Shown piece after piece: positions 479 through 17,017 of a stretch of DNA of 17,017 nt. The stretch lies in the UHGV virus genome UHGV-0118085; one strand, given 5' to 3'. This stretch comes from a virus. The notes beneath the pieces were generated by a model. The model was not told the origin of the DNA. It ran no database searches and saw only the letters and a list, made by a program, of their open reading frames with translations. Positions within the stretch are counted from its first letter, which is position 1. The number at the start of each line of letters is the position of its first letter. The position numbers and the translations under genes are program-made.

Positions 479-1612
479 CTATTCAGTTTCTGCAATCCAG
501 TCAGATATTTTTGCTTCAAAGTTAAGCTGTGTAGTAAATCCATTGCTATCAACGTCATGCTGTACCTTGCTGATTATCCAGTCCTGGGCGTCAATATCTG
601 CCTTAAAACCGGTCACGGTCGAATGCATTTCCGGGTACAACTCCGCACGCCCGCGCGCCAAGGTGATCGAAAACTCCGCCGCGCCGCGCTGTAACTGCTG
701 CCACTTTGCCGCCGCTGCGCGCCTAGCGGCTTCTTCGTTCTGGAAGGTTTTACGCATAATAAAAACGTTACCTTCAGCGCCTTCAATGTAGTCACCTTCC
801 CTGCTGCTGCTCTTATCCTTTTTTTTCGTTGTGGCACGGCGACGAACGCTAACCTTTTTCTTTTTCCCGTAGTTTAGATCAAGCCAGTACGCGCGGACGC
901 CGGTATAAGCGTCACGATCAGCAACCCGGAAGCGGTGCCGGTCTCCACTGCTGCGCGTGATGGCAATCGACGGAATAGCCTTCCCTGATGCAGTGAAACC
1001 ACCACCCGGCACGATAAACAGCAGACTTCCATTTTTTACCGTGGCGATGGCCCCTAACATTTCCGCCATTCTGGTCAGAAATGACATATCGCTTTCCTGA
1101 GTCTGATCGGCGTGATCAATTTCCACATCCATCAACAGATCGCTGATTTGCGGCGTCAGGTCATACCGTTTTGCGATAGCAGACACAATCCGCTCCACAG
1201 TCACATCATGCCAGGAGACTTCACGCTTTACGTTAAACTCTTCTCTGAAATCTGCACTTCTGGCAGTCACGGTGATACGGTCGGGCGGCCCGTCGTGCGC
1301 CACTTCATCAACCGTGTAGATGCCCTTATAAACCAGCGCTTCACCCATCCACCCCAGCCAGAAAGACAACTCAGCGCCACGCGGCGGAAGAGCAACGCTT
1401 CCATCAGTGTCATCCAGCTCTAATGTCAGCTGATCGGCGTCAAAACCCCGGTTGTCCGTCAGGCTGATGGATATCACGCGATCTGATAATTCTGTTAACA
1501 CCTTCCCGCCTTGCCGGACGCTGAATGCTGGTATTTTTAACGCCTCCGTCAGGATGTCATCGACACCGCCAGCCGCGCCCGAAATCATACTGCTGATCAC
1601 TGAAACACTCAT
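479..1612 (-). CDS. D: Phage tail protein D (gpD / late control D family)
   Basis: Long ORF resembling the P2 gpD family and immediately upstream of ogr. The track ORF runs to 1726, but the ATG at 1612..1610 is preceded by GGAGG and gives a P2-D-like length of about 377 aa, so I prefer that start. Confidence 0.8.
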   Translation of the reverse strand: MSVSVISSMISGAAGGVDDILTEALKIPAFSVRQGGKVLTELSDRVISISLTDNRGFDADQLTLELDDTDGSVALPPRGAELSFWLGWMGEALVYKGIYTVDEVAHDGPPDRITVTARSADFREEFNVKREVSWHDVTVERIVSAIAKRYDLTPQISDLLMDVEIDHADQTQESDMSFLTRMAEMLGAIATVKNGSLLFIVPGGGFTASGKAIPSIAITRSSGDRHRFRVADRDAYTGVRAYWLDLNYGKKKKVSVRRRATTKKKDKSSSREGDYIEGAEGNVFIMRKTFQNEEAARRAAAAKWQQLQRGAAEFSITLARGRAELYPEMHSTVTGFKADIDAQDWIISKVQHDVDSNGFTTQLNFEAKISDWIAETE

Positions 1613-1672
1613 ATACCCTCCCGTTTTGCTGAATAATTCCACGCGGGCGCGCGTGGGAGAATTCGTTTTAGT

Positions 1673-1690
1673 TGTCAGAGAGATAGCACA
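1673..1690 (+). promoter_or_regulatory. TGT-N12-ACA dyad, the Ogr-dependent P2 late-promoter activator-site pattern, upstream of FI
   Basis: TGT at 1673..1675, a 12-nt spacer cagagagatagc, then ACA at 1688..1690. The dyad centre is about 70 to 85 bp upstream of the FI start, the right region for an activator site near -55. Confidence 0.5.
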
Positions 1691-1753
1691 ACCAGAAAGG
1701 CGTGAAGCCGTTACGTCAATCAGCAATCATGGTGGCGAACTCAACAAAACGTA

Positions 1754-2956
1754 ATGGTGACAAACATGTCTGAGACACGTTTTCACGGTGCTCGCACCAA
1801 AGAAGAAACCGACATCACGAGGGTAATTAACGACATTGACTCCAGCGTCATTGGCGTGATTGTCATCGCTGATGACGCAGACGAAGACGCTTTCCCACTT
1901 AACATCCCAACGCTTATCACGCGGCCTCAGTCGATGCTCGGCAAGGCAGGGAAAACAGGGACGTTGTACAAAACACTGAAAGCTATTTCAGACCAGGCAA
2001 GCGCGAAAATCATTGTTGTTCGTGTTGCCACGGCTAAACCGCCGGAGGAAGGGAAAACGGCGGAAACACAGTCGCAGTTGATTATTGGTGGCTCTGATGC
2101 TGACGGTAACTACACCGGCATGTATGCGCTACTGACCGCCGAACAAAAAACGGGATATCGCCCGCGCGTCCTGGCGGTGCCGGAATACGATACCGAAGAA
2201 GTAACATCACAGCTTTGCGTGATCGCCAAACAGCTTCGCGCCTTTGTTTATGCTGGCTGTAACGGCTGCAACACACTGGCAGAGGCCCGGCAATATCGTG
2301 AAACCTTCGCATCACGTGAACTCATGCTGATCTGGCCTAACTACATTGCCTATAACCAGGTGTCCGGGGCAAATGAAGAGTTTCCCGCCCCAGCCTATGC
2401 GGTAGGGCTGCGCGCGTTTATTGACAACCAATACGGCTGGCATCGTTCTCTGTCTAACATCGCCGTCAGTAACGTGCTTGGCATGTCGAAGGACGTTTTC
2501 TGGGCGCTCCAGGCTGAAGACAGCGACGCCCAGACGCTGAACAACGATGAAATCACCACCATCATCAAGCGTAACGGCTTCCGCTTCTGGGGCAACCGCA
2601 CCACTGACACCAATGAATTTACTTTTGAGGTGTACACCCGTACGGCGCAAATCCTGGCGGACACCATCGCAGAGGCACAGTTTGAAACCGTTGACGGGCC
2701 ACTTACCCCAACCAACGTGAAAGACGTGGTGAGTGCAATTAACAAGAAACTCAGCGCACTTGTGACCGCTGGCAAGCTGCTTGGCGCGGAGGCGTGGTTT
2801 GACATTGTGGACAACCCGACCGCAAACCTGATTCAGGGAAAAGTGGCGATCCGTTACAAGTATACGCCAGTACCGCCGATGGAAGATTTAACGCTGATCC
2901 AGACGTTCACCGATGAATATTTTGAAGGCGCGTTTTCGTCTCTGGGGAGTAACTAA
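1754..2956 (+). CDS. FI: Contractile tail sheath protein (P2 FI family)
   Basis: 400-aa ORF with tail-sheath hallmarks (DADEDAFPLN near the N-terminus, GFRFWGNRT, LRAF, C-terminal YTPVPP). Its stop is immediately followed by the start of the tube-like ORF, as for FI-FII in P2. The true start may be the ATG at 1766 (MSETRF...). Confidence 0.85.
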   Translation: MVTNMSETRFHGARTKEETDITRVINDIDSSVIGVIVIADDADEDAFPLNIPTLITRPQSMLGKAGKTGTLYKTLKAISDQASAKIIVVRVATAKPPEEGKTAETQSQLIIGGSDADGNYTGMYALLTAEQKTGYRPRVLAVPEYDTEEVTSQLCVIAKQLRAFVYAGCNGCNTLAEARQYRETFASRELMLIWPNYIAYNQVSGANEEFPAPAYAVGLRAFIDNQYGWHRSLSNIAVSNVLGMSKDVFWALQAEDSDAQTLNNDEITTIIKRNGFRFWGNRTTDTNEFTFEVYTRTAQILADTIAEAQFETVDGPLTPTNVKDVVSAINKKLSALVTAGKLLGAEAWFDIVDNPTANLIQGKVAIRYKYTPVPPMEDLTLIQTFTDEYFEGAFSSLGSN

Positions 2957-4039
2957 ATGGCGATTCCAGCAAAATTGCGGCTGTTCACCTGCTTCGTGAA
3001 CAGCGTAAACAATATCGGCAAAGTGACATCTGTGACGCTGCCAAAACTGACCCGGAAAACGGAAGACTACCAGGGCGGCGGCATGATTGGTTCCGTTGCC
3101 GTCGATCTCGGACTGGATATCTGGCGATTCTGGGAACCGATCAAAGCCTTCTTTGCGGGCTTCTTTGCCGGTGTGATGCAGGCTCTTACACCGTTCCGGG
3201 ATGCCTTTGCCGGGCTGGCCCCCGTCTTTGATGTGATCTCGAATGCCGTTTCTGAGTTATGGCAGTGGTTCAGCAACCTGCTTTCACCAATGACGACCAG
3301 CAAAGAGATGCTTGATAAATGCGCAAGCGCTGGGGAGACATTCGGCAAAGTGTTTGGCCTGGCAATTCAGGGGTTAATGTTGCCTCTGACCGGGCTAGCC
3401 AAAATGGTTGGATGGATACTTGAAAAGCTGGGACTGATTCCATCCGGGATTGAAACAGCAAAAGCAAAAGCTGAGAAGGTACAGAAGGAACTAACACCGG
3501 CAGGATTGACTATGCTGCAGGACAAAGTTGGCGCGCTCACTGGTGATGTAAAAGCAGTAACCGCACCACCTATCGCACCGCCATCACCGGTGATTGCCGC
3601 AGATACAGGAACACAACGACGCTTACAGAAAATTGCCGACAACACCGGCGGGATGCTGGATGAAACCAAAAAACGGATCGGCCCTGGCGATATAGTGTTT
3701 AAAAACCTGCCCCGCGCATTAGCCGTCCACGGCACATGGCAGGAAGCACAATCAACCCAAGGCGCTAACCTGACCCAACTGAGCGGGCGACCGGTTATCG
3801 CAGCGGCATCAGCCCCGATTAAACCAGCGGCTGAAATACAGGCTATTGGCGGGCAATCCAGGAAACAAATCAGCAGATCGGCGCAAAACACCACGCCTGA
3901 TGAAATGCATATTCACATTCATATGCACGGCAATTTCAGCAACGACGCCCGCGACATTGCGCGCATGACCGCCGACGCAGTACAGGCAGAATTTAATAAG
4001 CGCTTCCGCTCACGTAGCAGCTTCAGTGACAATGAATAG
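2957..4039 (+). CDS. Chimeric ORF: tail-tube (FII-like) N-terminus fused in frame to a tape-measure (gpT-like) C-terminal portion; probably a deletion remnant
   Basis: The first ~54 residues (MAIPAKLRLF...VTLPKLTRK...VDLGLD) resemble the tail-tube N-terminus. The remainder is an Ala/Gly-rich, partly hydrophobic sequence typical of a tape-measure C-terminus. 360 aa is far too long for a tube protein (about 170 aa) and far too short for a tape measure (about 800 aa). Confidence 0.6.
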   Translation: MAIPAKLRLFTCFVNSVNNIGKVTSVTLPKLTRKTEDYQGGGMIGSVAVDLGLDIWRFWEPIKAFFAGFFAGVMQALTPFRDAFAGLAPVFDVISNAVSELWQWFSNLLSPMTTSKEMLDKCASAGETFGKVFGLAIQGLMLPLTGLAKMVGWILEKLGLIPSGIETAKAKAEKVQKELTPAGLTMLQDKVGALTGDVKAVTAPPIAPPSPVIAADTGTQRRLQKIADNTGGMLDETKKRIGPGDIVFKNLPRALAVHGTWQEAQSTQGANLTQLSGRPVIAAASAPIKPAAEIQAIGGQSRKQISRSAQNTTPDEMHIHIHMHGNFSNDARDIARMTADAVQAEFNKRFRSRSSFSDNE

Positions 4040-4051
4040 GAGAGCAAAACA

Positions 4052-5749
4052 ATGATGATGGTTTACGGAATGTTCGTCTTTGAGTTAAAAACCGTTCCCC
4101 ACCAACAGTTGCAGCAATCAAAGACCTGGAGGCATGTGAAGAACGAACGCATAAACCGATCGGCAAAATGGCAATACATTGGCGCGGGTGACGATCAAAT
4201 CACCCTATGCCAACTCACCATGAAGCCGACAAAGACGGGCGGCGATCTGAAGGAAATTGACGCGCTCACGCGCCAGGTGAAGAAACTGGCAGAAGGACAA
4301 CCGGCGCAGCCATTCAAGAAAGCGCGCGCGAGCAAAAAGAAAAACCACTTCACCGAAGCGCAGATCGCCGCGCTGCGGGAAAAAATTCAGGACTCCTTGG
4401 CCTGGCATCAGCAAGGATGGTTTGAACAGCGCCAGCAGCGCAACCGCATGATCCTGAAAAGTCGCCAGATTGGCGCTACCTGGTACTTTGCCCGTGAAGC
4501 GCTTTTACAGGCGCTGCGGGATGACGTTAAGCACGGGTATCAGCGCAACCAGATTTTTCTGTCAGCGTCACGTCGCCAGGCGCACCAGTTCCGGGGCTTC
4601 ATCCAGAAGGTTGCAGAAGAAGTCGACGTAGAGCTAAAAGGCGGTGACAAAATTTTGTTATCTAACGGGGCCGAATTGCATTTTCTCGGCACGTCTGCTG
4701 CTACCGCGCAGAGCTACACCGGCAACCTGTTTTTCGACGAATTTTTCTGGGTAGGTAACTTTGCCAACCTCCGCAAGGTGGCTGGCGCAATGGCAACCCT
4801 GAAAGGACTGACGCGCACTTATTTTTCAACGCCATCGAGCGAAAGCCATGAAGCCTACCCCTTCTGGACGGGTAAGCGCTGGAATGAGAAGCGGGCAAAA
4901 TCCAGCCGAGTAGAGTTCGACACAAGCTGGAAGACGCTCAACAGCGGCCTGTTGTGCCCGGATAAAACCTGGCGGCAGATTGTCACCCTGAAGGACGTGA
5001 TCGACCACGGCTGGGAGTTCACCGACCTGGAAGAAATCCAGGACGAAAATACCCCGGACGAATACACCAACCTGTACATGTGTGAGTTCGTCAAAGAAGG
5101 TGAATCCGTTTTCTCACTTAATCAGCTACTGACGTGCGGCGCGGACGGCTACGACGACTGGCAGGACTGGAAACCCTACGCCCCCCGCCCGCTTGGCGAT
5201 CGTGAAGTCTGGATAGGCTACGACGCCAACGGCGGCAGTGGCAACGGTGACAGCGGCGCTGTTTCCGTGGTTACCCCTCCCCTGGTCAGTGGCGGCAAGT
5301 TCCGCACGATAGAGACGCGCCAGCTACGCGGGATGGAGTTTGAAGAACAGGCCAAAGTGATCGAAGACCTGACCATTAAATACAACGTCCGGCACATCGC
5401 AATTGACGGTACCGGCATTGGTGAAGCGGTCTGGCAACTGGTCAAGAAATTCTTCCCGGCGGCGGTCTGTTTCATCATGTCGCTGTCATCAAAGCGCACT
5501 CTGGTACTCAAAATGCAGCAGGTGATCCGCGCGGGCCGCTGGGAGTATGACCGTAGTGAACAGGCGTTAGTGTCAGCATTCAACGCCGTCAGGAAAATCA
5601 CCACCGCCGGTGGACAAATTACCTATGACACCGATCGCGCGCGCGGCGTCAGTCATGGCGACTTAGCCTGGGCAAATATGCTGGCAATCATCAACGAGCC
5701 ACTTGGACGCGAGAACGGCAGCGGCGGCGGTTCCGTAAGAGAGTTTTAA
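4052..5749 (+). CDS. Chimeric ORF: gpU-like tail-protein N-terminus (about 65 aa) fused in frame to a nearly complete large terminase (gpP-like, ATPase plus nuclease)
   Basis: The N-terminus MMMVYGMFVFELKTVPHQQLQ...WRH...ITL...TGG matches the gpU family pattern. The rest carries terminase large-subunit features (KSRQIGATWYFAREAL, QIFLSAS, GNLFFDEFFWV, YFSTPSS...YPFWTG, C-terminal IAIDGTGIG). An RBS (GGAG) precedes the ATG, and the stop overlaps the Q start (TAATG). Confidence 0.65.
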   Translation: MMMVYGMFVFELKTVPHQQLQQSKTWRHVKNERINRSAKWQYIGAGDDQITLCQLTMKPTKTGGDLKEIDALTRQVKKLAEGQPAQPFKKARASKKKNHFTEAQIAALREKIQDSLAWHQQGWFEQRQQRNRMILKSRQIGATWYFAREALLQALRDDVKHGYQRNQIFLSASRRQAHQFRGFIQKVAEEVDVELKGGDKILLSNGAELHFLGTSAATAQSYTGNLFFDEFFWVGNFANLRKVAGAMATLKGLTRTYFSTPSSESHEAYPFWTGKRWNEKRAKSSRVEFDTSWKTLNSGLLCPDKTWRQIVTLKDVIDHGWEFTDLEEIQDENTPDEYTNLYMCEFVKEGESVFSLNQLLTCGADGYDDWQDWKPYAPRPLGDREVWIGYDANGGSGNGDSGAVSVVTPPLVSGGKFRTIETRQLRGMEFEEQAKVIEDLTIKYNVRHIAIDGTGIGEAVWQLVKKFFPAAVCFIMSLSSKRTLVLKMQQVIRAGRWEYDRSEQALVSAFNAVRKITTAGGQITYDTDRARGVSHGDLAWANMLAIINEPLGRENGSGGGSVREF

Positions 5750-6810
5750 TGAACACAACAACACACGAAAGCGGCCTGACTATGCTTACTGACGGTACAC
5801 AGCAACATGATATTGGTGAAGCACTGAAGCGCGATCCAGCCCTTAGCGCTTTCACCTTTGATGGGCCATACCAGGTCGCTGACGCTTACGACCTGCTCGA
5901 CAATATGTATTGCGCCGATAACGGCAGATATTACGAAACACCGGTGGACTGGTACGGGCTTGCGCGCTCATTCGGCAAGGCGTCCTGGCACCAGTCAGCG
6001 CTGTACTTCAAGCGCAACGCGCTGGCGGGTTGCTTCATCCCACACCCGCTACTGTCTCGCCAGACGTTCTCCGCCCTGGCGCTTGACTGGTTTGTGTTTG
6101 GCAACTTCTACCTGGAAGAACGAAATAACCGACTAGGCGGGCTGCTACCGCTCCGCCATTCCCCGGCGAAATACACCCGGCGTGGCATTGACCTGGATAC
6201 ATACTGGTTTATCAGGCAGTGGAAAGACGAATCAGCTTTTAAAACCGGCTCTGTCTGCCATGTGTTGAACCCTGACATTCATCAGGAGATCTACGGGATG
6301 CCGGAGTACATGGGCGCGCTATTGTCAGCCAGCCTGTCACACTCGGCGGACATGTTCCGCAAGATGTATTACGAAAACGGATCTCATGCCGGATGCATTC
6401 TGTATATCGGCACATCACAGGTGGACGACGCTGGCGTAAAAGTCATACAGCAAACACTGGCGGGAGCCAGGAACAAAGGGGCATTTAAGAACGTAGTGAT
6501 CCACGCGCCAGGCGGCGGTAAAGACGGGGTACAACTGATGCCCTTCAGCCAGATATCAGCAAAGGATGAGTTTTTAAATATTAAATCAGCGACACGCGAT
6601 GACATTCTGGCGGCTCACCGCGTACCGCCGCAACTGATGGGGGCCATGCCGGACGGCAACGGCTCATTCGGTGATGTGGAGAAGGCCGCGCGCGTGTTTG
6701 CCATCAACGAACTAATGCCAGCAATGGAAGCGCTGAAGCACGTCAACGACTGGCTGGGGGAAGAAGTGATCCGCTTTAAACCTTACGCCCTGCTGGAAAC
6801 CATGAAATAA
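5749..6810 (+). CDS. Q: Phage portal protein (P2 gpQ family)
   Basis: 353-aa ORF of P2 Q size, translationally coupled to the terminase ORF, and followed by a GC-rich cos-like spacer as in P2. Confidence 0.85.
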   Translation: MNTTTHESGLTMLTDGTQQHDIGEALKRDPALSAFTFDGPYQVADAYDLLDNMYCADNGRYYETPVDWYGLARSFGKASWHQSALYFKRNALAGCFIPHPLLSRQTFSALALDWFVFGNFYLEERNNRLGGLLPLRHSPAKYTRRGIDLDTYWFIRQWKDESAFKTGSVCHVLNPDIHQEIYGMPEYMGALLSASLSHSADMFRKMYYENGSHAGCILYIGTSQVDDAGVKVIQQTLAGARNKGAFKNVVIHAPGGGKDGVQLMPFSQISAKDEFLNIKSATRDDILAAHRVPPQLMGAMPDGNGSFGDVEKAARVFAINELMPAMEALKHVNDWLGEEVIRFKPYALLETMK

Positions 6811-7152: not shown

Positions 7153-9924
7153 TTAATCATCTAGCAACGGATCTTGTGCCTTACTGGAATTAACTTGCTC
7201 CAAATGCTTAATACAATCTTCACTTGAAATAAAATAGACCTTAGGTTTTTTCCTTAGCTCATATGTCAAAAATACTGTCACTTCCATTTTTACATACGTT
7301 TTCAGATTAGTTTCATTTATATCTAATCCTCTTGAAGTCAACAAACTATCAGATGGAGAAGTGAAAGATGCTTTTAATATATCGTCTCCCTCAAGAGAAA
7401 AACAACAAACATCATCAAGATGAATATAATAAAAACCATCCTTATTAAATTTTACATCATTTTGTACTCTATATCTCATTCCTCTGTAGAATCTGACGTT
7501 ATGATCAAAATCATTCTCTATTGCGCTTATAGTTATAAACTTCAAACCTTCAGGGAGTTGGTTAAGATTCTTAATAATAACAACATCCATATCATGAAGA
7601 TCACTAATCAAATGAGAAGTGATGAGTTTGAAAACATTTGCCGCATATAAAGATGGAGATTGGGAATATATTTCTCCATTAATGGGCTTAATAATCTGTC
7701 GCTTCGTAATTAGATATTCAAAAACAAACTTGTCACTAATATTTTCACAACTACACTCTAAAGTAGCAAACTCACGAAATGTTTTTATGAAATCATTTTT
7801 TAATCCATCTTCATATAGCTTCATGAGTTCTTCATCATAAGGAGTATTGATCACATCATTGACTTGAATATCAAGAATCTTAGAGTTTATTTCTTCAAAT
7901 CCAGAAAGTAGATTATGCTTACGCTCATCAAAACTATTAAGCTCATCATTATGAGCTTCTAATTCGAGTAAATCCATAACTTCTCTAAAAAAATCTGATT
8001 GATATATAGACATGACATCATCTATAAAATGAGATGAAAGATTATTTACCTTTACAAGGTTCTCTAAATCATCAATATATATTAGACTTAAACCATTATT
8101 GTACGAACGACCTTTGAATAAAATCAATGCTAAAGCAAAAGCCATATAATGTTGTGATCTTATAGAAATAGCACCTGAGCCAGTTGCATCCCTTATTTCA
8201 AACTCATCTATATCATCTAAAAAAACAGATTTTAACGAAAAAAGAATATCATAAACTTCTGATATGAAGTAAATCTCCGTTAAGTAATGAGGATTCAACC
8301 ATTGGCTCAGCAAGTTTGCCAGATCTAATATTTCCTCATTCTTATTTTTTAGTTCACATAATCGAATGCCATCATTTTTTCCTAGTAGGTGCTCCAACCG
8401 CATTCCAATACAAGATATCACTATTTTATTCGCATCAATCAGCAAGGATTGTCTAGTATTCAATTCAGATGATGAAATGCCAATATAAATGTTATTATTC
8501 CCAGTAAGAAATGTAGTGTTTATTTTAAAAGCATCATAATGTCTATTGACAAGGTTTTTAATACTCGACTTAAGATAAATCTCAAGAAACTTATCACTTT
8601 CAGAATACATAACTCTTTCTTCTGTGAAACTCCTAGACTCAATCAAAAAACCATAATATGAAGATGGATCATAAATTATTCTCGGAAGAGAAAGCATAGA
8701 ACTAAAGACGATTAGAGCTTTTTCAATATCGGTATATAGAAGAAGCCATAGCAACTTATTATAAAACGCGAATAGTATTGTTTGTGGTGTATTTTTTGAG
8801 GATGGGGATTCATATATGAATCGTTCCAAACTTAAAAACACTCCTGCACTTTGAGATTTTGAAATTATTAAATATATTACTTCCACACAAAAATCAAGTT
8901 GACTACTTAAACTCCCCTGCAAGGTGTTTAATGTATTCCTTACAACCATCAACTCTATTTCATCATAAAAATAGAAATTTTCGCTTTCATTAAGATAATT
9001 GAATGATTTACTAATGAGCGTTTTAATTTTATTAAGAGACTCATGATTTTGATTCAAATTAATGCCTTCATCAGAAAAAATAATGGCATCTCTATCAATC
9101 ATAGGCTTGTGAAATGTAGGTGAGATATATAATACAACTTTTGAAGTGCCGAAAATTTTTGTTAGTTCAGCATTCAATTTATTTAGATTATTCTTATTAA
9201 GGCCAACTATTACTTTCTTATCCGTAGAATATGTATTTTTAATTTTTACTCCATTTAGAGGCATGAACTCCATTTCATATTTAATAACTGAATTCTGTTG
9301 GTTTTTTATAAAATTACGAAATTCAGCAAGTAGATGCTTGCTATTATTATTACTATCTAAAACAAATGAACTAACTTCCGTTACTTTATTCAATAAAATT
9401 GCATCAATCAACTCTTTTTTCTCTGTTATATAATATAAACTCCTGAACATGGATATGTATCGGAATATAAAAAAAACAGAGCATGATACTGACAAGGCAT
9501 ATTGAATAACCCCCCCACCGATTACCAAGAAAAAGATTCCCACAAATAATCCGCAAATAGCATTAAGGCTGAATGAATAAAATTTATATTCTCTCAATAC
9601 CAATTGCCTTGTTACATTAACAAAATACTTATTTGATGCCTCTGTAACCTGTTGAACAAACATTCCCATAAATGCAATTGATAATGCAGCGATTGTTCCG
9701 TGGATTGATAATATAGTTCCCCAAGAGCTAGGAATCCAATTTAACTCTGCTTTATTAACGTATAACGGAGAAATAAAGAGCCAGCGATAGTCAGAATCTC
9801 CTCCTGCCCCTACAAAAAATAAAACCGAACCTAAAAGCAAAATTAAACCCATCTTAATAAAAGACTCAATTGCTTTTTTACCTGTGAATTCAGCCACCTG
9901 CTTTGATATTTTACCACTATCCAT
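7153..9924 (-). CDS. Large AT-rich cargo protein of unknown function with about four N-terminal transmembrane helices; candidate anti-phage defence or exclusion protein
   Basis: Uninterrupted 923-codon ORF. Sampled 60-nt lines inside it give 19/60 and 14/60 G+C, against 37/60 in a sampled line of gene A. Hydrophobic segments fall at residues about 25-41, 66-90 and 118-165 (nt about 9430..9852). No Walker A, HUH, DPPY or other motif recognised in the soluble part. It occupies the P2 tin/old position between A and cos/Q. Confidence 0.8.
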   Translation of the reverse strand: MDSGKISKQVAEFTGKKAIESFIKMGLILLLGSVLFFVGAGGDSDYRWLFISPLYVNKAELNWIPSSWGTILSIHGTIAALSIAFMGMFVQQVTEASNKYFVNVTRQLVLREYKFYSFSLNAICGLFVGIFFLVIGGGVIQYALSVSCSVFFIFRYISMFRSLYYITEKKELIDAILLNKVTEVSSFVLDSNNNSKHLLAEFRNFIKNQQNSVIKYEMEFMPLNGVKIKNTYSTDKKVIVGLNKNNLNKLNAELTKIFGTSKVVLYISPTFHKPMIDRDAIIFSDEGINLNQNHESLNKIKTLISKSFNYLNESENFYFYDEIELMVVRNTLNTLQGSLSSQLDFCVEVIYLIISKSQSAGVFLSLERFIYESPSSKNTPQTILFAFYNKLLWLLLYTDIEKALIVFSSMLSLPRIIYDPSSYYGFLIESRSFTEERVMYSESDKFLEIYLKSSIKNLVNRHYDAFKINTTFLTGNNNIYIGISSSELNTRQSLLIDANKIVISCIGMRLEHLLGKNDGIRLCELKNKNEEILDLANLLSQWLNPHYLTEIYFISEVYDILFSLKSVFLDDIDEFEIRDATGSGAISIRSQHYMAFALALILFKGRSYNNGLSLIYIDDLENLVKVNNLSSHFIDDVMSIYQSDFFREVMDLLELEAHNDELNSFDERKHNLLSGFEEINSKILDIQVNDVINTPYDEELMKLYEDGLKNDFIKTFREFATLECSCENISDKFVFEYLITKRQIIKPINGEIYSQSPSLYAANVFKLITSHLISDLHDMDVVIIKNLNQLPEGLKFITISAIENDFDHNVRFYRGMRYRVQNDVKFNKDGFYYIHLDDVCCFSLEGDDILKASFTSPSDSLLTSRGLDINETNLKTYVKMEVTVFLTYELRKKPKVYFISSEDCIKHLEQVNSSKAQDPLLDD

Positions 9925-12603: not shown

Positions 12604-12777
12604 TTAGATGGAAACAGTGTCGCCGGGCTGTATTGCTCTGGCGTCACGTTCTGAATAGGTGATCAGATCTGTATTGCTGTAACCCCCCTCACCCAGAACC
12701 TCAACACGAGTTATCCAGTAATTACGGCGCGGGAGCACATCCAGCACCTTTGTCACAACGACCTCAACGGGATTCAT
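12604..12777 (-). CDS. Hypothetical small protein (57 aa), translationally coupled to the methyltransferase
   Basis: Hand-translated as MNPVEVVVTKVLDVLPRRNYWITRVEVLGEGGYSNTDLITYSERDARAIQPGDTVSI. Its ATG (12777..12775) overlaps the methyltransferase stop codon (12779..12777) by one nucleotide (TGATG), with AGGAGG upstream. It is below the ORF-track length cutoff. Confidence 0.45.
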   Translation of the reverse strand: MNPVEVVVTKVLDVLPRRNYWITRVEVLGEGGYSNTDLITYSERDARAIQPGDTVSI

Positions 12778-13760
12778 CAGAACACCTCCTGATCATCAAA
12801 AGCACCAGAGGCAACCATTTCTGAATAGGTCGCATCAGCCATCACAGCACCGCAATCAGGACAACCGCCGCCAGTACGCCCACAACAACCACAAACGCGT
12901 AGAAAGCCGATCACCTCGCCAGCCAAGTTGCGAGATTTGGCCCCTACAGATCGGCGGATTTCGAATGAATTAAGGGTGAACGGGTAGTAAATTTTGCGGG
13001 TTTCCGGGGTATCGCTACCGGAAAAAACAGACAGGCATCCTTCGTTGTTATGAGCGGTAATCAATGACTCAACCAGGTCACGGTGATCATCGACAGTGAA
13101 GGGTTTACCGTACGCGGTAAAATCAGCCGTTTTACTCGCTGGCAGGTAAGGCGGATCACAGTAAATTACTGTGCGCTCAAATATGCGACTAGCAACAGGG
13201 ATGGTGTAACGGAAATCAGCGCAAAGAAACTGAGCACCTTTCTCATATGCTCGTTTTGCAAAGTGCTGGATCTCTGCAACAGGGAAAATTGGCTTGCGGC
13301 GACGACCAAATGGAACGTTAAATTCATTCTTCCCATTCACTCGGTATAAACCGTTATAGCAATGACGGTTTAGATAAAGGAATAATGCTGCAAACTTTAC
13401 AAGTTCACTCTGATAATAAACCTTTCCATCAGAAGTTTTTTTATTATGCTGGGGGAAATCACGATTAAAATCATTAAATTCATTGCGGCATTTATAATAT
13501 GCCTCTTCATTATTACCGCCATCAAATAGAGTAGCAGCGACATCTAGCAACGATTTAGTATTGTTCTTCAATATTGAATAGAAGTTCATAAGCGCTGCGT
13601 TGCTATCACACAGAATATAGGTTTTATAGTCAGTGTTCAGAAAGACGCTACCACTACCTACAAAAGGCTCAACGAGACATTCACCCTTTGGCAAAGCCTC
13701 CAGTACATGAGGCATCGCGCGAGACTTGCCGCCCGCCCAGATCAGAGGGGAGTTAACCAT
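12777..13760 (-). CDS. Dam-type N6-adenine DNA methyltransferase with a Cys-rich C-terminal tail
   Basis: N-terminal SPLIWAGGK...EPFVGSGSV (AdoMet-binding) and catalytic DPPY (nt 13146..13157). I start it at the ATG at 13760 (MVNSP...), preceded by AAGGAG, rather than the track start at 13832. The C-terminus carries CGCCGRTGGGCPDCG (nt about 12852..12893). Confidence 0.85.
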   Translation of the reverse strand: MVNSPLIWAGGKSRAMPHVLEALPKGECLVEPFVGSGSVFLNTDYKTYILCDSNAALMNFYSILKNNTKSLLDVAATLFDGGNNEEAYYKCRNEFNDFNRDFPQHNKKTSDGKVYYQSELVKFAALFLYLNRHCYNGLYRVNGKNEFNVPFGRRRKPIFPVAEIQHFAKRAYEKGAQFLCADFRYTIPVASRIFERTVIYCDPPYLPASKTADFTAYGKPFTVDDHRDLVESLITAHNNEGCLSVFSGSDTPETRKIYYPFTLNSFEIRRSVGAKSRNLAGEVIGFLRVCGCCGRTGGGCPDCGAVMADATYSEMVASGAFDDQEVF

Positions 13761-13920
13761 TTTTTTGCTCCTTGATTTCTGCGGCCTTTTCTCTGTTGTA
13801 GATCCAGTCTTCCAGGCTGCGATAAATTTCATTGGTGGACAGCTTTTCTTTTTTCAGTAAGGTTAATTTGATACGTAACAACCCAAGCAGGTGCGCGCGT
13901 TCATTTATTTGAATTGTCAT
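13753..13920 (-). CDS. Hypothetical small protein (55 aa) overlapping the methyltransferase start
   Basis: Hand-translated as MTIQINERAHLLGLLRIKLTLLKKEKLSTNEIYRSLEDWIYNREKAAEIKEQKNG. GGAGG lies upstream of its ATG, and its 3' end overlaps the methyltransferase ATG by 8 nt. Confidence 0.45.
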   Translation of the reverse strand: MTIQINERAHLLGLLRIKLTLLKKEKLSTNEIYRSLEDWIYNREKAAEIKEQKNG

Positions 13921-14787: not shown

Positions 14788-14975
14788 GCGGCCTCCTGTC
14801 TCAGTTGATCAATGGTTGAAAGGGCTTCAGCTAACGCGAAATCCAGCCCCAGATAATTACCATCTTTGGTGATTTGGTAACGCTGGCGTGAATACGGCTT
14901 TTTGCGTGGCAGCTTCACAATAGTGAAGCCGCGATAGATTGCTGTTTTGCTGTTGATCTGGATAAGCATCATCAA
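14784..14975 (-). CDS. Hypothetical early-operon protein (63 aa)
   Basis: ORF starting 18 bp after the cox stop on the same strand; first gene of the overlapping chain. Confidence 0.5.
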   Translation of the reverse strand: MMMLIQINSKTAIYRGFTIVKLPRKKPYSRQRYQITKDGNYLGLDFALAEALSTIDQLRQEAA

Positions 14976-14992
14976 TCCCTTAGCTTCAGTTA

Positions 14993-15265
14993 TTAAAGGC
15001 CCATCCAGAGCAACCAGGCATCACGCTGTTCAACCGGGCGGTTATAGAACGCCTCACGCACCCCGCGATTGAACTCAGGAACAAAGACCAGCTTTTCTCC
15101 CGCGCGCGCTTTTGGCTTCGACGGATCACGAAACTCAATAACCGGCAGCTTATTTTTTTCAATCATGGTTTGTACGGCTGTGCGTGGTTTACCTAGCAAT
15201 TCCGCGAACTTATCAGGATGTACCGCATCAAGCGGGTACTGAATAACGTAATCAGCAGCTTCCAT
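14993..15265 (-). CDS. cox: Cox-like excisionase / early repressor of the lysogenic promoter
   Basis: 90-aa ORF divergent from the C repressor gene, resembling P2 Cox (FAELLGKPRTAVQTMIEKNKLPVIEF...). It is the first gene of the minus-strand early operon leading to A. Confidence 0.75.
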   Translation of the reverse strand: MEAADYVIQYPLDAVHPDKFAELLGKPRTAVQTMIEKNKLPVIEFRDPSKPKARAGEKLVFVPEFNRGVREAFYNRPVEQRDAWLLWMGL

Positions 15266-15426
15266 AAACTATCTCCATTCTCATTTGGTTACATGCTAAC
15301 CTTGTAAGATCCAGCGGCTTTAAAACGGCTCAGGATGGTTCCTGAGCGGCTGGACTCACGCCCAAAAAGGTTCTGAGTCAATGACCTTTTCGGGTGAGTA
15401 TAGTCATTAAGTCAGGACCAAATCAA
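15266..15426. promoter_or_regulatory. Divergent early/lysogenic promoter-operator region between cox and C
   Basis: 161-bp intergenic region between divergent cox and C. It contains a perfect palindrome gctcagga-tggt-tcctgagc (15328..15347), near-direct repeats ggttcctgag / ggttctgag (15338..15347 and 15369..15377), and a -10-like TATAGT (15399..15404) upstream of C. Confidence 0.55.
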
Positions 15427-15720
15427 ATGAATCTTGCTCAAAAATTGCGAGCGATCAGGAAGGCAGAAGGGCTAACACAGGCTAAATTCTGTGAAATCAG
15501 CGGGATAGCGTTAGGAACGCTGAAGAATTACGAAGGAGGGCATCAAGAGCCAGGTATACAAGTGATCATGCAGGTAACTAACACGGCGCATTTTGAAAAA
15601 TACACCCTGTGGTTAATGACCGATAAGACAGCACCAGAAGCCGGGCAGATTTCCCCGGCCGTCGCACACTCTGGGCAAGACGAAACAACCTCGTCACCAT
15701 CAGGCCGCAAAACTGGCTAA
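15427..15720 (+). CDS. C: Immunity repressor C (P2 C family, helix-turn-helix)
   Basis: The C-terminal half (FEKYTLWLMTDKTAPEAGQISPAVAHSGQDETTSSPSGRKTG) closely resembles P2 C. I start it at the ATG at 15427 (MNLAQKL...), preceded by AGGA, giving 97 aa; the track ORF begins at a GTG at 15394. Confidence 0.85.
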   Translation: MNLAQKLRAIRKAEGLTQAKFCEISGIALGTLKNYEGGHQEPGIQVIMQVTNTAHFEKYTLWLMTDKTAPEAGQISPAVAHSGQDETTSSPSGRKTG

Positions 15721-15862
15721 CGATTAACCGGGACTATATTTATTACATAAGTTGTTTACTTGTAAGGAAATATAATTTCAGGCGTTACAAAGAAGTAAGT
15801 AAGAAACCTCGGACTGTTACTACTAATCCGTGCAAGTTTGAAAGCTCTATTCGGAGGGTCTT

Positions 15863-16843
15863 ATGACTATCAAAAGACTCGATGATGGGCGTTATGAAGT
15901 GGATATCAGACCGCGCGGGCGTGAAGGACGTCGCATCCGCCGAAAATTTGAGAGAAAGGCTGAAGCTATTGCCTTTGAGCGCTACACATTAGCGAACGCT
16001 AACCAGAAGGAATGGGCGGGCCAGAGAACAGATCGCAGATCTCTATCTGAATTACTGGATGCCTGGTGGAAGTATCACGGTCAAAACCATGAACACGGTG
16101 AGAAGGAATTTAACCACCTCACGAAGACGATCGGCGGCATCGGTGACATACCCGTTAGCCGCGTGAGCAAACGGCTCCTGATGGACTACCGTTCTATGCG
16201 ACTTCGTGACGGTATCAAGGCATCAACAATTAACCGTGATATGTACCGTTTTTCAGGCATGTTCACCAAGTTGATTCAGTTGGAAGAGTTTTCCGGCACA
16301 CATCCAGTGCATGGACTACCGCCACTGGCAGAAGAAAACCCAGAAATGACATTTCTGGCAAAGGAAGAGATCAGCAGCTTACTAAATGCCTTAACCGGCG
16401 ATGCAAGATTGATTGCCCTTCTGGGCGTCAGTACCGGTGCGCGATGGTCTGAGTTGGCAACGTTAAAGCCTTCTCAGATCGTCAATTGCCGCGTGACTTT
16501 CCTGAAGACCAAAAACGGGAAAAAGCGCACTGTTCCAATTTCTGCTGAACTAGAAAAACTGATCAAGAGGGAGGCAAGCGCGAAACTGTTTAAAGTGGAC
16601 TATGAAAAATTTTGTCTGATCCTGAAGGCGGTAAAACCAGATATACCCCCGAACCAGGCAACACATATTCTGCGTCATACCTTCGCAAGTCATTTTATGA
16701 TGAATGGGGGTAACATTATCGCGCTACAGCAGATATTAGGACATGCCAGCATCCAGCAAACGATGGTTTACGCGCATCTGTCGCCAGACTATCTGCAAAA
16801 TGCTGTCTCACTAAATCCCCTTGCCGGTGGCGTATCGCTTTAA
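15863..16843 (+). CDS. int: Tyrosine integrase (P2 Int family)
   Basis: 326-aa ORF with the catalytic signature HILRHTFASH ... MVYAHL (H-x-x-R and the nucleophilic Tyr). It lies downstream of C on the same strand and next to the right att repeat, as in P2. Confidence 0.9.
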   Translation: MTIKRLDDGRYEVDIRPRGREGRRIRRKFERKAEAIAFERYTLANANQKEWAGQRTDRRSLSELLDAWWKYHGQNHEHGEKEFNHLTKTIGGIGDIPVSRVSKRLLMDYRSMRLRDGIKASTINRDMYRFSGMFTKLIQLEEFSGTHPVHGLPPLAEENPEMTFLAKEEISSLLNALTGDARLIALLGVSTGARWSELATLKPSQIVNCRVTFLKTKNGKKRTVPISAELEKLIKREASAKLFKVDYEKFCLILKAVKPDIPPNQATHILRHTFASHFMMNGGNIIALQQILGHASIQQTMVYAHLSPDYLQNAVSLNPLAGGVSL

Positions 16844-16854
16844 GATAGGAGTGA

Positions 16855-16887
16855 CCTAGAGTGTCCACATTGTGTCCACACTCTAGG
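16855..16887. promoter_or_regulatory. Inverted repeat cctagagtg / cactctagg enclosing two direct GTCCACA repeats; candidate integrase arm-type sites
   Basis: GTCCACA at 16863..16869 and 16874..16880, 11 bp apart, identical in sequence and spacing to 141..158. It sits between the integrase stop and the att core. Confidence 0.5.
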
Positions 16888-16962
16888 AAATTCAAAACGG
16901 CTCAGGCTGGCTCCAGCATTTTATAAGTAGCTGTTTTTACTTGAGGTTATACGTAAGTTATT

Positions 16963-17007
16963 GATAAAAAAAACCCCCACATCATGTGGGGGAAGACAGG
17001 GATGGTG
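16963..17007. repeat. Attachment-site direct repeat, int-proximal copy
   Basis: Matches 45..89 at 44 of 45 positions and includes the same A-run plus ccccaca/tgtgggg hairpin. Confidence 0.8.
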
Positions 17008-17017
17008 TCTATGGCAA

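Follow-up and report, generated by a model that had tools for sequence, protein, structure and literature searches.

A perfect palindrome between two divergent regulatory genes raises the question of what it serves: the repressor encoded on one side, the Cox protein encoded on the other, a further dimeric regulator, or the RNA transcribed across it. The palindrome lies in UHGV virus genome UHGV-0118085, and the window referred to below is the whole stretch of DNA analysed, 17,017 nucleotides in length. A preliminary description of this DNA had reported an inverted repeat with arms of 8 bp, and both a reading of the sequence and a repeat finder agree that it is perfect, the arms GCTCAGGA (15328-15335) and TCCTGAGC (15340-15347) being 100% complementary and separated by the 4-nt spacer TGGT. 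In 5000 dinucleotide shuffles of the cox-C intergenic region (161 nt), a perfect inverted repeat with 8-bp arms and a loop of 0-8 nt arose in only 72 (1.4%). The 13-mer that had been described as overlapping the palindrome and recurring in the att arm was recovered as such: AAAACGGCTCAGG shares 7 nt with the left arm and has exactly two exact copies in the window (Table 1), and the chance of an exact 13-mer common to segments of ~160 nt and ~110 nt is, as a rough estimate, ~5e-4. The near-direct repeats ggttcctgag (15338-15347) and ggttctgag (15369-15377) likewise both exist in the sequence.

The regulatory genes reported on the two sides of the palindrome are supported by Pfam matches (Table 1), and a PDB sequence search with Cox returned P2 Cox (4LHF, E 6.7e-21) as its sole match. 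At the protein level the closest characterised relative is WPhi, with identities of 81% for Cox, 66% for C and 84% for Int; C is 75% identical to the C proteins of P37 and SI7. A near-identity DNA search of 14900-15900 against a phage collection gave no match, relatives being found at the protein level, and over the switch an E. coli ES1 prophage beside cpxP shows 85% identity. These genes make up the lysis-lysogeny switch of a WPhi-type P2-like prophage, with cox on the minus strand and C and int on the plus strand. For comparison, cox-C intergenic regions were taken from ~70 related loci. A scan of a viral collection with GATCCAG-N33-37-CTGGACTC, with no condition on the inner arms, gave at least two new switch variants, the matches listed being mostly random.

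The att core of the window is also present in the attP of WPhi, P37 and SI7 and in prophages beside cpxP, and in other prophages sharing the core the host flank matches the cpxP-side flank of ES1. Since both att copies fall inside the window, the integrated element is only ~17 kb long. It is a decayed or rearranged P2-like prophage that has kept an intact switch, int, a gpA-like replication gene and a methylase. The late region (479-6810) is fragmentary, with gpD (minus strand), tail sheath and portal; a tail-tube ORF comprises the first 51 residues only, and another ORF fuses the GpU N-terminus to the large terminase. No Pfam family matches a 923-aa ORF (7153-9924, minus strand) that separates the late-gene fragments from the gpA-like gene; it may be cargo carried in the variable region of P2-like phages. 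A candidate cos site (226-241) was discarded, the Pfam scan showing late-gene fragments there, and Int arm sites also occur at 138-161. At the junction of att core and host (16966-17017) there is a strong terminator-like hairpin, CCCCCACATCATGTGGGGG, and a truncated Rfam match to the Hrs1 sRNA family that falls below threshold (37 bits; gathering score 56.4). The homologous junction in E. coli ES1 abuts the 3' end of cpxP, and a host transcript may receive a new 3' end upon integration.

The direction of transcription decides how the palindrome is to be viewed. In the WPhi record AJ245959, the annotated features for Pe and Pc are 37 nt each, the former overlapping the start codon of C and the latter starting at the cox ATG, and the window aligns to both. 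The position of Pe in the window agrees with the WPhi feature and abuts the C start codon, and the Pc motif TGnTAnnCT is conserved across relatives. Face-to-face Pc and Pe are stated for P2 and WPhi (PMC1904263, PMC3936717). The 'divergent cox/C promoter region' of the preliminary description is thus accurate for the genes, which are divergent, but not for the promoters, which by homology with WPhi and P2 are convergent, so that the palindrome lies in the overlap transcribed from both and not upstream of divergent promoters. Transfer of the starts from WPhi, on the assumption that its annotated features end at +1, would place the Pc start near 15307 and the Pe start near 15391; the palindrome sits between these two predicted starts, inside a stretch of roughly 85 bp that could be transcribed from either side. 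A GATC (Dam) site falls at about +2 to +5 of the predicted Pc transcript (15308-15311) and is conserved in most relatives, in variants such as GGATCCAG, AGATCCAG and TGATCCAA, and the element encodes its own D12-class adenine methyltransferase (12777-13832).

Table 1. Features of the switch, int and att regions, with positions in the window.
Feature	Position	Strand	Basis or remark
cox (Cox: Pc repressor and excision directionality factor)	14993-15265	minus	Pfam Phage_Cox, E 1.2e-22
Predicted Pc, extended -10 TGcTAACCT	15294-15302	plus	aligns with the end of the WPhi AJ245959 Pc feature
Outer (basal) repeat, left arm GATCCAGC, with GATC site	15308-15315	plus	pairs with 15349-15357 in RNA folds
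13-mer including Cox box 1 AAACGGCT (15323-15330)	15322-15334	plus	exact repeat at 16894-16906
Palindrome GCTCAGGA-TGGT-TCCTGAGC	15328-15347	none	apical stem of two-tier hairpin; core kept, spacer varies
Outer repeat, right arm GCTGGA(C)TC	15349-15357	plus	covariation, relatives, folds
Second conserved inverted repeat CCCAAAAAGGT / ACCTTTTCGGG	15361-15394	minus	repeat finder; 12-nt variable centre
Left candidate C-operator site (WPhi O2 position)	15369-15385	none	positional counterpart of the WPhi GTCACCAATA copy that lies past the Pe start
Pe promoter, -10 TATACT (15402-15397), -35 TTGATT (15426-15421)	15397-15426	minus	promoter scan
Right candidate C-operator site (WPhi O1 position, between Pe -10 and -35)	15403-15419	none	position
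C immunity repressor gene	15427-15720	plus	Pfam HTH_3
int, tyrosine integrase	15863-16843	plus	Pfam Int_N and Phage_integrase
Two Int arm-type sites, GTGTCCACA twice	16861-16880	plus	read from sequence
Putative att-arm Cox site: 13-mer with box 1 AAACGGCT, box 2 CTGGCT (16907-16912)	16894-16912	plus	sequence
att core, right copy	16963-17007	none	local alignment, 44/45 identical
att core, left copy	45-89	none	local alignment, 44/45 identical

Among the ~70 loci the switch is a mosaic, in which the right module with the C sites tracks the C recognition helix and the left module with the palindrome reassorts independently. The locus L024 combines the exact C-operator (right) module of the window with a variant palindrome, and L035, L037 and L038 combine a palindrome of the window type with the WPhi O1 sequence GTCACCAATA, of which an apparent inverted copy lies across the Pe -10. 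In other loci (L009, L013, L018, L019, L020, L030 and L032) a small unrelated ORF of 62-159 aa, on the C strand, is found between cox and the Pc/palindrome segment; some of the loci with an ORF inserted upstream of the Pc segment have a Cox 99% identical to that of the window, and the cox leader looks like a recurrent insertion point for extra genes.

The palindrome itself is conserved as a core, TCAGGA-N4-TCCTGA, retained in 28 distinct relatives with the 4-nt spacers TGGT, TGCC, TGCT, TGAC, AGCC, ACGT, ACGC and TCGT. Elsewhere in the window the best copy of the dyad is TCAGAACACCTCCTGA, with one mismatch (12777-12792); it lies at the stop codon of the methylase gene and is probably a chance match. 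Several simple identities for the palindrome were rejected. No intrinsic terminator was called there by a terminator scan, the plus strand has no U-tract, and the only candidate U-tract on the minus strand, CGUUUUAAA, is not general among relatives, so that a terminator or attenuator is ruled out. A covariance-model search with Rfam 15 produced no hit in 14900-16960, the palindrome included, at E values up to 10. An upstream reading frame of 13 codons, beginning with the ATG at 15335, has no usable ribosome-binding spacing, and this ATG is missing in relatives with a KANK-type Cox helix. To our knowledge, none of the consensus sites of CRP, LexA, Fur, FNR, IHF or CpxR fits the dyad.

Position points to Cox. 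According to a secondary account (PMC5009727, citing Ahlgren-Berg et al. 2009), the target of WPhi Cox is a directly repeated 12-nt sequence in the Pe-Pc region. The only suitable direct-repeat pair in the WPhi intergenic region is CCWGTCCYTTCTAGG, with two copies 20 bp apart, which is probably the repeat meant in that account. The pair lies between the conserved GATCCAG and CTGG, that is, in the place of the palindrome (15311-15353 in the window), and the palindrome segment is the positional homologue of the WPhi repeats taken as the Cox operator. A box of the P2 type was rejected: the P2 cox-box consensus TTAAA(G/C)NC(A/C) has 59 matches in the window at one mismatch or less against 53 expected, which is chance level, and relatives do not share the lone 1-mismatch match in the switch (15315-15323, minus strand). 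Since this consensus is not matched, the element is not of P2 specificity. The shared 13-mer carries a putative Cox box of the form AAACGGYT, and its sequence covaries with the DNA-binding helix of Cox. Where the helix reads ..M(I/L)EKNK, 20 of 21 distinct switches and 11 of 12 att arms carry AAACGG; with KANK, KARK and KENK helices AAACCG, AGACCG or GTCG is found and AAACGG never. The varying helix residue aligns with D33 of P2 Cox, which was proposed as a specificity determinant in the paper on the P2 Cox structure (PMC3936717).

A putative second box, ATGGTT (15335-15340), forms the centre of the palindrome, 10 bp downstream of box 1, and is also the att-arm box 2 of several relatives. RYGGYT occurs at 15314, 15325, 15335 and 15346, with spacings of 11, 10 and 11; at the switch close relatives firmly keep box 1 alone, box 2 being degenerate (ATGCTT, ATGCCT or ATGACT), so that conservation there does not extend firmly to a two-box Cox site. 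In the att arm ACGGCT is followed 10 bp on by CTGGCT. The att copy of the 13-mer falls between the core and the two Int arm-type sites, which agree with the P2-type arm consensus tgTGGaCa (PMC3448106), and in the P2 GenBank record Cox binding is annotated between the core and the int-proximal Int arm, the position of 16894-16912. In all att arms of relatives a phage-specific motif of the switch segment recurs between the Int arm-type sites and the core: GTCCCTTATAGG in WPhi, AAACCGCT in P37 and AAAACGGCTCAGG in the window. The shared 13-mer may most simply be taken as the signature of the double role of Cox as switch repressor and excision factor. The dyad arms do not follow it. Both boxes are kept in the att arms, and TCAGGA/TCCTGA is not conserved there (CTCAGG..CCAGC in the window, TTCCAG..ACAGC in others), so that Cox binding does not explain the arms.

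RNA pairing would offer an explanation of the arms. Outside the palindrome lies a second, outer repeat, GATCCAGC / GCTGGACTC, in which compensatory changes are seen at alignment column pairs 11-45 and 12-44; the latter occurs as CG (11), GC (7), UA (3), GU (2) and UG (1). The covariation score of 0.138 compares with 0.060 +/- 0.012 in shuffles, is reached by 0 of 500 shuffles and exceeds every slid control, significance that the shuffle controls overstate because the sequences are related and reassort. An outer repeat of at least 4 bp with a span of 36-50 nt is present in 45 of 49 distinct relatives, in variants such as CCAGCCC/GGGCTGG, CCAGTCCC/GGGACTGG, CCAACCC/GGGTTGG and CCAGAC/GTCTGG. In the inner repeat the six core pairs form in 99.4% of cells of a gap-free alignment of 28 distinct sequences; the core is almost invariant, which leaves little true covariation in it and fits sequence-specific recognition as well as pairing. 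Families without TCAGGA have another inner inverted repeat in the same place (NNNAAAC..GTTTNNN or CCGCTT..AAGCGG). The fold of the 53-nt segment is a hairpin of two tiers, box 1 lying in its 5' internal loop, with energies of -22.1 kcal/mol (z -3.5) for the plus strand and -25.5 kcal/mol (z -5.5) for the minus strand; WPhi and P37 give the same two-tier fold from unrelated sequences. One-sided transitions in the core produce G.U on the plus strand in 5 of 5 cases and A.C in none, and over all tested pairs G.T outnumbers A.C by 16 to 6, though these events are few and possibly related. In a fold of the entire Pc leader the basal arm takes a different partner. The basal stem begins 1-4 nt after the predicted Pc start, a distance that depends on the transferred end of the WPhi feature, 4 nt before CCAG, and in P2 a 7-bp inverted repeat, TTAGTGC..GCACTAA, lies just past the annotated Pc -10. 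The fold, the covariation, the G.U bias, the position of the stem and the P2 repeat together favour a 5'-terminal stem-loop on the C-int mRNA.

A second conserved inverted repeat is present on the other side of the overlap, with arms at 15361-15371 and 15384-15394 (fold -14.4 kcal/mol, z -2.85). It is conserved with other stems in relatives, such as AAATGGTA/TACCATT and TTTGGTTTTA/TAAAACCA, and in WPhi its centre contains the operator half-site O2. This repeat would form a hairpin at +1 or +2 of the predicted Pe transcript.

Taken together, these data lead us to propose, with moderate confidence, that the palindrome is part of the segment serving a WPhi-type P2-like switch as both Cox operator and leader, a segment where Cox binding and an mRNA hairpin are superimposed. 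Pc, reading rightward into C and int, and Pe, reading leftward into cox, would face each other, with the palindrome in the stretch transcribed from both. Cox would read box 1, which overlaps the left arm, and box 2, oligomerise and bend the DNA; at the switch it would block Pc, and at att it would direct excision. This double action of Cox, on a two-box unit that recurs in the int-proximal att arm, would explain the shared 13-mer. Dyad symmetry would be needed neither for Cox nor for C. The inner arms and the outer repeat would instead form the two-tier stem-loop a few nucleotides from the Pc start, most likely as a 5'-terminal hairpin on the C-int mRNA that might, for example, protect a weakly transcribed message, and the complement of this hairpin would sit in the cox leader.

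The earlier idea that a symmetric C dimer binds either the palindrome or the pair ggttcctgag/ggttctgag has some structural appeal, in that the crystal structure of P2 C is a symmetric dimer resembling palindrome binders (PMC2995052) and the 10-bp spacing of the half-sites fits one dimer. It is nevertheless highly improbable. Known C operators flank the Pe -10 or -35, and those of WPhi are 10-bp half-sites 34 bp apart (PMC1904268); for P2-type C operators in general the half-sites are expected at 22-34 bp from each other. The WPhi intergenic region holds only two direct-repeat families, the two copies each of GTCACCAATA and CCWGTCCYTTCTAGG, and the GTCACCAATA copies, 34 bp apart around the Pe -10, agree with the published C operators (PMC1904268). 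Candidate C sites of the window stand at the same O1 and O2 positions (15403-15419 and 15369-15385) and vary with the C type among relatives. The distance of the palindrome from the Pe -10 is 50-70 bp, and it lies downstream of the predicted Pe start; its centre is ~60 bp from the -10 (15397-15402), which is no half-site position flanking the -10 or -35. The core is kept in 28 relatives whose C helices and Pe-flanking modules differ widely, which tells against the new C-operator architecture that had been suggested: one core that occurs with many C types and operator modules is not a C operator. Conversely, P37 and L024 have the C type and operator module of the window but a different or variant palindrome, and L011 has the core palindrome, yet clean direct repeats, ACACATATAGGTTC twice, flank its Pe -10. 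The near-direct repeats fail as C operators too: ggttcctgag is no more than the palindrome's right arm and shows no correspondence with C type, and of the two copies only ggttctgag falls within the site homologous to WPhi O2. Location and independence from C type agree with the remark in the preliminary description that the palindrome is probably no classical C operator. The two candidate C sites form an inverted 17-mer (82%, 14 of 17 complementary) with centres 34 bp apart, unlike the direct repeats described for P2, WPhi and P2 Hy dis. Inverted also scores better than direct for the C sites of L026, L082, L089, L093, P37 and L012, and those of the L011 type and WPhi are clearly direct repeats; conserved flanks may give part of the inverted similarity.

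The dyad might still be a DNA site for a symmetric protein, either head-to-head Cox protomers or a dimeric phage or host regulator reading TCAGGA-N4-TCCTGA, and nearly invariant arms around a free 4-bp centre, with half-site centres 10 bp apart, are the classical signature of a helix-turn-helix dimer. The palindrome also lies within the predicted Cox operator, and the orientation of P2 cox-boxes varies between targets (PMC3936717). We nonetheless regard a symmetric site as rather unlikely: the att-arm Cox site retains boxes 1 and 2 but does without the arms, phages that have the arms fall into at least two Cox helix classes (EKNK and KANK), the one-sided changes all give G.U on the plus strand, there is no other good copy in the window (the best, at 12777-12792, has one mismatch), and no candidate protein was found. 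The families without TCAGGA keep a different inner repeat in the same place, which favours pairing over one fixed protein site. Of the suggestion that the palindrome is a site for another dimeric regulator, what survives is the regulatory site as such, given the Cox-operator position and the Cox box in the 13-mer; the dimer is the weaker part, Cox being a filament-forming winged-helix protein that reads phased boxes and not a simple dimer. It is also improbable, to a greater degree, that the symmetry has no function and is a by-product of packed Cox boxes and shared ancestry, spread by recombination of the left module. Such a history would suit a switch that is clearly mosaic, a left module that travels as a unit and core arms with almost no independent substitutions, and GCGGC-type sequences are nearly self-complementary, which makes direct and inverted repeats hard to separate. 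It does not sit well with 12 arm positions that stay fixed while the spacer and both flanks of the same module vary a lot, with compensatory changes across families in the outer repeat, with the shared two-tier fold of the unrelated WPhi and P37 sequences, or with the rarity of a perfect 8-bp inverted repeat in shuffles (just 1.4%).

The combination of Cox operator and leader hairpin may be carried one step further, tentatively and as a reading that we consider possible but not probable, to a conserved and undescribed RNA layer in which both transcripts start with a covarying hairpin, H1 (15308-15357) from Pc and H2 (15361-15394) from Pe, with the operators inside them. H1 would hold the Cox boxes, in its internal loop and at its apex, and H2 would have a C half-site in its loop; DNA binding by Cox and C could be coupled to leader stability or to sense-antisense pairing in the lysis-lysogeny decision.

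Comparison with known systems places the element within a familiar kind. The WPhi Cox operator, as far as the secondary account describes it, is alike in lying just downstream of the Pc start, between GATCCAG and CTGG and between face-to-face promoters; its repeat motif, too, has a copy in the int-proximal att arm (GTCCCTTATAGG), the two Cox proteins share 81% identity, and the att core and the integration site beside cpxP are the same. The sequences are unrelated, however (AAACGGCT / ATGGTT in the window and GTCCYTTCTAGG in WPhi), the spacing of the boxes (10 bp against 20 bp, the latter with the same proviso as to source) and the DNA-binding helix of Cox (QTMIEKNK against VKMVKENK) differ, and the strong inner palindrome of the window contrasts with a 9-bp outer repeat only in WPhi. 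In P2, one protein reads short boxes phased by 10-11 bp, at the lysogenic promoter as well as between the att core and the int-proximal Int arm (PMC3936717; P2 GenBank annotation), as Cox may do in the window; cox-boxes with the consensus TTAAA(G/C)NC(A/C) are known at Pc, attP and P4 PLL, and the Cox of the window matches the P2 Cox structure 4LHF. P2 differs in having at least six boxes over the Pc -10 and -35, whereas one or two are recognisable in the window, downstream of the predicted start, and the conserved box does not fit the P2 consensus. The Apl protein of phage 186 is similarly both a directionality factor and a lytic regulator, with operators that are direct repeats one helical turn apart, situated between the face-to-face promoters pR and pL and at att; it is, however, a sequence outlier among directionality factors, with up to seven consecutive operators at pR-pL (PMC7498355), and 186 has a different, CI-type repressor (PMC1904268).

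For the RNA part of the proposal there is a parallel outside phages. Stem-loops of the ompA type at the 5' terminus stabilise bacterial mRNAs, and the window would resemble them in having predicted stable hairpins that begin within a few nucleotides of the predicted 5' ends of the Pc and Pe transcripts. The predicted hairpin of the window is unlike them in carrying putative protein-binding boxes and in being transcribed on both strands.

The element is therefore of a known kind, the Cox operator and leader of a P2-like switch, in which the box specificity is new and the leader hairpin possibly undescribed, and its palindrome is no evidence for a palindromic operator of the P2-type C repressor. 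For the family, a testable rule of Cox specificity emerges, by which helix position 36 (equivalent to P2 D33) tracks base five of the box, E going with AAACGG and K with AAACCG, and which could aid the prediction of cross-talk and of helper/satellite compatibility among P2-like prophages. If the hairpin reading is true, a post-transcriptional element would be added to the textbook switch of face-to-face promoters.
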